Shown here piece by piece: positions 9,960 through 10,700 of a stretch of 64,000 nt of DNA (positions are counted from its first letter, which is position 1; each line of letters opens with the position of its first letter). The position numbers and the translations under genes were made by a program. The notes beneath the pieces are model-generated. The model saw nothing but the letters and a program-made list of their open reading frames with translations, did not search any database and had not been told where the DNA came from. Where the stretch lies: sequence record MT880872.1. One strand, 5' to 3'. This DNA comes from Staphylococcus phage PhiSepi-HH3.

Positions 9960-10700
9960 ATAGCGTACATATAACACATATACAAGCATGTATATATATA
10001 TGTGTAGTAAGTACAAGCATATTAATATATGCGTAATATGGTTATTATATGCGTGTGTATGGCTATATATTAAGCATATAAATATAATTAAGATTATTCA
10101 TATTATATATATATCATTTGTTTATTGATCTTATTTAATTAGTTGATCTTATTAATATATTAGGTGTATTGGTTATTATATTATTCTATTGTTTAGCCGC
10201 TTAATATATGCGTTGATCTTATTATTAAGTACATACATTTATAAGATCATTATCATTATCATAATATTGTTAATGCGTGCGTGTGTAATGTGTATATATT
10301 ATATATATGTGCATATGTTTATATGTGTGTATGTATTCAATGAATAGATGAATACAATTAAGATCATAATAAGTTATTAAGTGATAGTTATTATTTATAT
10401 GTGTGATCTTATTATTATGTGCGTATGTGTATATAGATGTGTGTATATATGCGTGTGTGTATGGTGTATATGTATGTGGCTATATATGTATATGTATATG
10501 GTATATGTATATAGTATATATGCATGTGTATATATGATTAAGTATATATGTATATGTATGTGTATATGTATGTGTGCATAGTATATATATATGTGTGTAT
10601 GTGCCTAGTGATAACATAGTCATACATGTATATATATGTGTGCATAGTGTAGCAAGGTAGCAAGACAAAGCAAGGCAATATATAAGCGTGTGGCTAGTGT
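9960..10700. repeat. About 740 bp alternating purine-pyrimidine low-complexity tract (TG/TA/CA dinucleotide runs, C-poor on the plus strand), Z-DNA-prone, containing four TGATCTTATT(A/T) iterons with GATC cores
   Basis: Runs such as gtgtatatatgcgtgtgtgtatggtgtatatgtatg are visible. The iterons are at 10126, 10143, 10213 and 10403. Confidence 0.7.

Follow-up and report, generated by a model that had tools for sequence, protein, structure and literature searches.

Staphylococcal SPbeta-like phages, with genomes of about 120-130 kb, are found in Staphylococcus epidermidis, S. capitis, S. hominis, S. haemolyticus, S. aureus and S. argenteus, and they carry resistance genes, such as aacA-aphD and dfrA in KT429160. 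Nothing was found in the literature searched on the origin, the packaging (pac) site or the early regulation of these phages. The present analysis deals with a large non-coding hub in one of them, Staphylococcus phage PhiSepi-HH3 (MT880872.1), and with the short GATC-containing repeats that lie in it. The window, that is, the whole stretch of DNA analysed, comprises 64,000 nucleotides of this phage. The hub (9415-13308, 3.9 kb) has no convincing open reading frame (ORF). It is bordered on the left by small leftward genes, including the ArdA anti-restriction gene (7062-7721, minus strand), and on the right by a leftward gene for a protein of 291 amino acids (aa; 13309-14184, minus strand) and a gene for a RecD2-type helicase, after which the rightward late operon begins. 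The 4-kb stretch around the repeats is 100% identical to Staphylococcus phage SPbeta-like (KT429160/NC_029119, from S. epidermidis 36-1, 127,726 bp); the corresponding identity with SPbeta-like 2, a phage of S. haemolyticus, is 99.9%. Taken as a whole, the window matches KT429160 at 99.99% identity and runs collinear with it (99.98-100%), apart from the insertion of an IS110 element and a 1.27-kb deletion.

The repeats consist of exactly four copies of the decamer TGATCTTATT, all of them exact matches on the plus strand (10126-10135, 10144-10153, 10214-10223 and 10404-10413), where 0.69 would be expected in the window; none of 100 dinucleotide shuffles matched this number. A preliminary description of this DNA had reported four elements of 11-12 bp, each with a GATC, inside an alternating purine-pyrimidine tract and next to AT-rich, unwinding-prone DNA. 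The number four and the GATC in every copy are borne out, as is the richness in AT (74-80% throughout the repeat region and about 85% at 10750-10870). The unit, however, is 10 bp long, three of the starts given (10143, 10213 and 10403) were one base early, and only copy 4 abuts the main block of alternating TG/TA (10414-10650), of which it forms the left edge, while copies 1 to 3 lie in AT-rich spacers between such blocks. The start-to-start spacing is 18, 70 and 190 bp. Two inverted copies with one mismatch each, TGATCTTATA (10240-10249) and TGATCTTAAT (10357-10366), are found on the minus strand, the first of them forming a 9-bp inverted repeat with copy 3. The predicted fold of 10100-10430, the hairpin of copy 3 included, is no more stable than those of shuffles (z = -0.78).

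Nowhere else in the 127,726 bp of the complete phage genome is there a copy of the decamer or of the octamer TGATCTTA, which are present at this locus 4 and 6 times, respectively. GATC alone shows no enrichment in the window, with 163 sites against 175 expected. The copies turn over among close relatives: copy 1 is deleted in relative L013 and a new octamer has appeared in L002, L011 and L012, while copy 2 is constant in L002 and L004, although the spacer between copies 1 and 2 mutates there. Despite this turnover, the number of TGATCT hexamers in the gap remains steady at 10 to 13 among six relatives. The flanks of the decamers are partly repeated too (28-30 nt at 79-80% identity), and therefore some of the copies may stem from local duplication.

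The four decamers are evidently the highest-information copies of an asymmetric word with the core TGATCT (pentamer AGATC), and it is the distribution of this word that constitutes the main finding. When all hexamers were scanned without bias, none proved to be as clustered in the genome as TGATCT/AGATCA: 34 of its 55 copies lie between 3664 and 11180 of the window (34/55 in 8 kb, binomial p ~3e-27), whereas 3.4 would be expected from the dinucleotide composition of the segment itself. This domain of 7.6 kb is made up of the left part of the hub and the ArdA early operon. Its dense part begins with two TGATCTA sites on the minus strand (9855-9860 and 9900-9905), just downstream of a rightward early-type promoter, and includes a perfect 12-bp palindrome of two half-sites, TGATCTAGATCA (10735-10746), which is situated in the spacer of a minus-strand sigma-70-like match (10752-10723) and of which one half is missing in L013 and L014. 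The outermost site (11175-11180, minus strand) is the right edge of the domain; beyond it, the next TGATCT is found only at 16076, within the IS110 element. On the other side, 23 further TGATCT/AGATCA hexamers (18 on the plus and 5 on the minus strand) are spread over 3664-8960, in and between the early genes.

Inside the domain, AGATC occurs 43 times against 7.9 expected; in the rest of the genome, it occurs 29 times against 264 expected, an approximately 9-fold under-representation. In the ORFs of the phage backbone, the base before an in-frame GAT followed by C is A in 9 and T in 76 cases, while before an in-frame GAT without a following C the two bases are balanced (A 576, T 577). Since the depletion in the backbone is present in all three frames and in the reverse complement, it acts on the DNA and not on codons, and these frame-by-frame controls rule out codon usage as the cause of the pattern. 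In the domain, the bias before GAT-C is reversed (A 9, T 4); in its coding DNA, the GAT is an in-frame Asp codon in 15 of 17 sites, and A precedes all 11 GAT-CAx dicodons. Such counts show selection in favour of the word inside the domain and against it outside, exerted at synonymous codon positions.

AGATC is one of many short words that the backbone lacks. The observed/expected numbers are 4/96 for GCGC, 2/63 for CGCG, 4/248 for GAATC, 6/201 for AATCC, 4/105 for GATGC, 0/35 for GGACC and 2/40 for CCAGG, and CCWGG and the hexamers CTATAG, TACGTA and CTTAAG are also nearly missing. In the insertion sequence and transposon (IS/Tn) cargo, the words avoided by the backbone are at expected levels. 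The whole set looks like a broad avoidance of restriction sites. The domain likewise has no copy of GCGC, CGCG, GAATC, AATCC or GATGC, AGATC being the single exception. Because every other word avoidance of the backbone is shared, the segment is not foreign DNA, and this explanation was rejected. A host-wide avoidance of AGATC was rejected as well: no avoidance specific to this pentamer was seen in the IS/Tn cargo of the phage, in the S. epidermidis phage PH15 or in small samples of staphylococcal chromosomes. The literature search yielded nothing on AGATC as a staphylococcal restriction target, nor a description of a domain-confined TGATCT word. One phage methyltransferase is a C5-cytosine methylase (PF00145), and GATC is at its expected frequency in the phage. 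Neither of the two annotated methyltransferase genes, the second being a generic S-adenosylmethionine-dependent one, has a Pfam match to the adenine-specific (Dam-type) family, a result that concerns these two genes, as no genome-wide Dam search was run.

The same map of the word is kept in close relatives from S. aureus, S. argenteus, S. hominis, S. haemolyticus and S. capitis, and the alternative gene cassettes that relatives have in the domain also carry it. The Mammaliicoccus phages phi36 and phi127 and the lytic staphylococcal Sextaecvirus, on the other hand, are essentially without GATC (0-1 site in 26 kb; L009, L010, L016, L018 and L019), and the word is therefore lineage-specific.

The architecture of the hub reaches much further than the word. 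In phi36 and phi127, a homologue of the 291-aa protein (about 30% identity) accompanies a syntenic gap of about 4 kb, which is unalignable but has its parts in the same order: a G-rich/C-poor tract, a centre with CAACTA(T)CCCCCC, a G-poor tract of the CATATA type, and the early promoters and genes. In PhiSepi-HH3, a C-poor (G/T-rich) tract on the plus strand (10300-11100) holds part of the repeat cluster and a G-poor (C/A/T) tract (11400-12600) has its G-rich strand on the minus side. Between them lies a central element (11100-11450, minus strand) with the only G6/C6 run of the genome (11328-11333; TAACATATCCCCCCACTAAAAAG on the minus strand), a run that falls within an annotated but doubtful ORF of 85 aa (11193-11450). 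Each of the two tracts is about 1 kb long, with C falling to 2-7 or G to 1-6 per 100 nt, and their G-rich strands converge on the hub centre. Phages phi36 and phi127 share this arrangement, and Bacillus SPbetaL4 has a small version of it; R-loop-prone or Rho-loading RNA might conceivably be made here. Overall, the order of G-rich tract, unique C6 element, DnaA boxes, G-poor tract with a lineage-specific short repeat, and early promoters is conserved in the SPbeta phages of Mammaliicoccus and Bacillus. The equivalent G-poor tract holds the TGATCT cluster in the staphylococcal phage, nine same-strand copies of ATTACCA in phi36 and DnaA boxes in phi127. The ATTACCA array of phi36 is a tight one, and the word was counted 17 times against 2.1 expected. 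ATAACAG of phi36, enriched in the domain and depleted outside, was considered as an analogous word and turned out to be an intergenic promoter-like element. Searches of 9000-13600 with Rfam (E <= 1) and for tRNAs gave only spurious microRNA-type matches on the TG/TA repeats.

For SPbeta and its relatives in Bacillus, mapping of virion reads places the opening point, where headful packaging starts, between yonR and yonP, and 251-bp pac fragments have been published in a study that also compares SPbeta-type packaging with that of P1 (bioRxiv 10.1101/2021.11.22.469490). The SPbetaL4 fragment maps to 10241-10492 of its genome (L020), after a G-rich block of 250 bp and before a G-poor tract with TTATCCACT, and contains TAAATATACCCCCCATATAT; packaging starts at the early-gene end of the fragment and runs toward the late genes. 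The C6 run of the staphylococcal hub matches the C6 element in this experimentally defined fragment. Because the hub architecture matches that of SPbeta, the centre of the hub is predicted to be the counterpart of the SPbeta pac or opening region, with the opening point at about 11.1-11.45 kb and packaging proceeding rightward. The nearest TGATCT site is about 150 nt from the C6 run, and from there the TGATCT domain stretches toward the early genes and not to the other side. The domain would thus abut the packaging start. As a general rule, the DNA that is packaged last leaves the capsid first, and the domain would then enter the cell behind any terminally redundant DNA, with its promoters in front.

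The early promoters can be recognized by a dispersed element, WAAGAAATAAAATATAAT, of which about 25 copies are found genome-wide, upstream of genes and oriented with them. In the window, it occurs on the minus strand at 3379, 5613, 7036, 7740, 7853, 8368, 8978, 9438, 9647 and 14204 and on the plus strand at 9820, 18114, 18149 and 19795. It is likely to be the counterpart of the SPBRE/early promoter of SPbeta, and in the Mammaliicoccus relatives AAGATAAAATATAA takes the role of early-promoter element. Two leftward copies (9438-9453 and 9647-9662) drive the early operon. A rightward copy, AAGAAATAAAATATATAAT (9820-9837, plus strand), would send transcription through the repeat cluster, a stretch with no ORF; backward-facing copies are also found in the phi127 gap. 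A scan with promoter and terminator consensus sequences gave nothing above shuffles. The phage also encodes a homologue of MrpR (KT429160 protein 9922-10926; Pfam MrpR_N_CB, E = 3.6e-22). Together with a weak DndB-like protein of 427 aa (716-1999), the second of the trio, and an integrase-fold protein of 350 aa (2308-3360, minus strand), it follows the order yopR-yopQ-yopP (cf. PMC10516654). This trio in window 1-3360, the MrpR homologue lying mostly to the left of the window, is probably a lysogeny-control module. The gene of the integrase-fold protein borders the motif domain at its far end, and two TGATCT sites precede the gene at a distance of 300-370 bp.

The existence of the word, its uniqueness and its distribution, the opposite selection on it within and beyond the domain, and the conservation of the hub layout are shown by the sequences; that a protein binds it, which protein this would be and what the binding would do are matters that we infer. 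The reading that we favour, if tentatively, is that the repeats are recognition sites of a DNA-binding protein marking an early domain beside the predicted genome end, a domain that stretches from the hub centre over the divergent early promoters to the small early genes, including ArdA. A sequence-specific protein would read the word as monomer half-sites. It would load best on the dense cluster of 9855-11180, with its decamers, octamers and palindrome, and it would also occupy the scattered sites along the early operon, so that the domain would be handled differently from the rest of the genome. Such handling could consist of silencing or timing the early anti-defence operon, or, alternatively, of a treatment of the pac-proximal DNA during packaging or entry. 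Candidate readers of the word are a host factor and two phage products, the integrase-fold protein of 350 aa and the winged-helix protein of 291 aa.

Several observations weigh against recognition by such a protein. Conservation of the sites does not exceed that of their flanks: among six relatives that are 92-99% identical, 20 of 93 site positions are variable, where 16.8 would be expected. The sites have no consistent position relative to the early promoters, and a classical operator function is therefore unsupported. The orientation bias of 18:5 in coding DNA is explicable by codon constraints, and the non-coding part is unbiased (5:6). Since the other avoided words look like restriction avoidance, AGATC could be a restriction target, with the enrichment in the domain having an unrelated cause. 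The GATC-free Mammaliicoccus relatives do without the word, which is hence not essential to the family. Finally, the placement of pac stands on architecture and one short common element, the genome ends being predicted.

A bolder form of the protein-recognition reading can be envisaged, in which the word is a positional code: present at about 4.5 per kb in the 7.6 kb by the genome end, removed from the other 120 kb at synonymous sites, and recognized by a phage or host protein. Such a code might be used for silencing the anti-defence operon in the prophage, for protecting or drawing in the pac-proximal DNA with its early promoters at entry, or for signalling the end of a headful. We regard it as a possibility, although on the doubtful side.

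The preliminary description took the repeats for iterons of a phage origin, with the 291-aa protein as a helix-turn-helix organiser and the helicase nearby. As an account of the repeats themselves, namely as initiator-binding or unwinding elements served by host DnaA and/or the 291-aa winged-helix protein, we consider an origin unlikely. Several features nevertheless speak for an origin in the hub, which is a conserved, non-coding and cis-acting region close to the main divergence of gene orientation. A pair of tandem DnaA-box-like nonamers, TTTTCCACA and TTATCCCCA, 11 bp apart and with one mismatch each, is located at 11019-11038 (minus strand), at a distance of about 600-900 bp from the decamers, of which copy 4 (about 600 bp) is the closest. 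At the position of this pair, seven staphylococcal relatives have TTATCCCCA and a perfect TTATCCACA; at the equivalent spot, phi127 has 7 boxes in 110 bp, four of them perfect, and phi36 has 3. The stretch with about 85% AT and the alternating TG/TA blocks would suit unwinding, and the rightward early-type promoter fires into a tract with a GC skew above +0.5, so that its G-rich, R-loop-prone transcript might activate an origin. In addition, GATCTTATTATTA resembles the E. coli oriC 13-mer GATCTnTTnTTTT, with a match at 8 of 11 fixed positions. The 291-aa protein, a candidate winged-helix DNA binder to judge from its modelled C-terminus, has sub-threshold Pfam matches to HTH_36 and Phage_rep_O, and the top Foldseek matches of its model are the iteron initiators RctB, RepE, a Rep-DUE complex and staphylococcal RepA.

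Against this stand the repeats' own properties. The decamers do not behave as iterons: the unit is short, the spacing irregular, two inverted copies are interspersed among the direct ones, and copies turn over with no excess conservation. The core word runs through 5 kb of coding DNA and is purged elsewhere, a feature that no origin model predicts or needs. A genome-wide motif search, which the preliminary description had named as a check, thus gave a divided answer, since the decamer does not recur at similar density while the core hexamer extends far beyond the origin proposed. The structural resemblances of the 291-aa protein are non-significant (best E = 0.008, template modelling score about 0.2-0.3) and should be taken as hints only, because the model is of low confidence (predicted local distance difference test score 56). 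The protein has no relatives in a one-genome-per-species collection and no sequence match in the PDB, even with a profile, and it falls into only two clusters in a set of 5.8 billion proteins. Its gene is 2.9 kb from the decamers, there is no repeat array in or beside it, and the motif does not co-vary with it, as the same sites accompany a 60%-identical variant. The helicase adds no support, its gene being of the RecD2 type and split by IS110 in the window (14220-15056 and 16536-18065; intact in KT429160), and the genes for a replicative helicase and polymerase are far from the hub. The cumulative GC skew was discarded as an origin marker, since its turning point is 6-10 kb away and only follows gene orientation. 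Furthermore, staphylococci are not known to have a Dam/SeqA system that would give GATC a role at an origin. That an origin lies somewhere in the hub, apart from the role of the repeats, is quite possible.

Somewhat less probable still is a packaging signal, in which the cluster would be an array bound by the small terminase subunit beside the pac cut, comparable to the TGATCA/G hexamers of P1 pac or the pacL/pacR boxes of SPP1. The opening point of the SPbeta relatives is in the homologous divergent non-coding region, between the G-rich block and the G-poor tract, in a fragment with ATATACCCCCC, and the staphylococcal hub has this same layout, the only C6 run, and sites that start next to it. 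Purging of the word elsewhere could, moreover, reduce false packaging starts. The cluster, however, is one-sided and 1.3 kb long, with a further 5 kb over which the word continues; no such repeat is found in the pac fragment of SPbeta, the GATC-free relatives package without the word, and the terminase genes are more than 11 kb away.

An element acting at the level of RNA is improbable. The rightward promoter at 9820 would make a C-poor non-coding RNA of about 1.2 kb, whose UGAUCUUAUU motifs would base-pair among themselves or with the leftward early mRNAs, through the AAGAUCAA motifs of the latter. This promoter is the only early-promoter element that points away from genes, with no ORF following it; inverted copies can form stems of 8-9 bp and the early mRNAs have 13 AGATCA in the sense strand. 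Yet the avoidance of AGATC in the backbone is just as strong on the antisense strand and holds in every frame, a sign of action on DNA; the fold is no better than that of shuffles, and neither an Rfam match nor a clear terminator was found. Least probable of all is that the decamers have no function and are by-products of local duplication in low-complexity, AT-rich DNA, for although their flanks are similar, copies come and go among relatives and the region is rich in microsatellite-like repeats, the 23 early-gene hexamers at synonymous positions, the reversed A/T bias before GATC and the genome-wide purge would be left unexplained.

Some further features of the region may be mentioned. On the right side of the hub, a module of about 180 nt is duplicated (12794-12976 and 13083-13261, 75-79% identity), with an internal inverted repeat and a Shine-Dalgarno-like sequence; an ORF of 9 codons follows the first copy only, and the module may be a small regulatory or toxin-antitoxin-like cassette. 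A mosaic breakpoint is found at 12285-12291, where L005 has an insertion of 850 bp with an ORF of 277 aa and where the IMG/VR contig L003 diverges. The IS110-family element is 1,557 bp long (15042-16598; transposase ORF 15149-16222, minus strand). It recurs at 96-100% identity on tiny contigs (L021-L041) labelled Streptomyces, Pseudoroseomonas, Bifidobacterium, Marinobacterium and others, which most likely reflects contamination with staphylococcal DNA. At 62589-62592, the segment 71251-72517 of KT429160 is missing, which has an IS-type integrase-core gene and two small ORFs. The heptamer GAAGCGG, presumably the Chi sequence of S. aureus, has all 8 copies in KT429160 (1559, 3818, 31150, 60897, 77279, 84591, 100026 and 109486) on the minus strand, regardless of gene orientation; this 8:0 bias suggests a genome-wide polarity relative to a fixed end or to the direction of replication.

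The analysis thus yields a predicted genome end, a hub architecture across three host genera and a word under opposite selection inside and outside one domain. Through the pattern of the word, the handling of pac-proximal early DNA by a large temperate phage becomes open to direct testing. If a protein reads the word, recoding could separate early anti-defence expression, packaging and replication from one another.

Several known systems invite comparison. In iteron origins, the repeats are usually 17-22 bp long, on the same strand, regularly phased, and beside or inside the initiator gene. As in the origins of lambda, P1 oriR, F, staphylococcal RepA_N plasmids and staphylococcal pathogenicity islands (SaPI ori), the repeats described here are in AT-rich non-coding DNA with DnaA boxes in the vicinity, and the neighbouring genes include one for a possible winged-helix protein and one for a helicase; the decamers differ in length, strand and phasing, and lie 2.9 kb from the candidate initiator gene. 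The 13-mers of E. coli oriC and the GATC heptamers of P1 oriR also have a GATCT core followed by T-rich DNA. These elements abut DnaA boxes and depend on Dam and SeqA, in contrast to the separation of boxes and decamers in the hub. In P1 pac, 7 hexamers flank the cut on either side within about 160 bp, and cleavage is governed by Dam methylation. In both phages, short GATC-containing TGATCN hexamers are repeated beside the packaging cut of a headful phage, a cut that is predicted in the present case. Here, however, the predicted opening region has about 12 sites to one side only, distributed over 1.3 kb, and 23 more are in the adjacent genes.

The SPBRE of Bacillus SPbeta is an element of 15 bp dispersed over about 10 promoters (PMC10516654). 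Like the SPBRE/MrpR system, the staphylococcal phage has an MrpR homologue and repeated elements; the decamer, unlike the SPBRE, is confined to 10126-10413. It was rejected as an SPBRE because a different element (AAGAAATAAAATATAAT, about 25 copies) has the dispersed, promoter-linked distribution. The first-step-transfer region of T5, with its injection stop signal, is a large non-coding region with repeats, palindromes and DnaA boxes by the earliest anti-host genes. The hub likewise combines repeats, a palindrome and DnaA boxes beside early anti-defence genes, although SPbeta-like phages are not known to enter in two steps and the elements are arranged differently relative to the entering end.

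Closest in their logic are the sites of matS/MatP, parS/ParB, Noc and SlmA, systems of bacterial chromosomes that use palindromes of 13-16 bp. In these systems too, a short word is confined to, or excluded from, one domain, with a protein reader that is established there and proposed here. The phage word differs in being asymmetric, in having 5-6 bp and in having no known reader. If the reading as a positional code were true, it would amount to a domain code of the matS/parS type in a virus.

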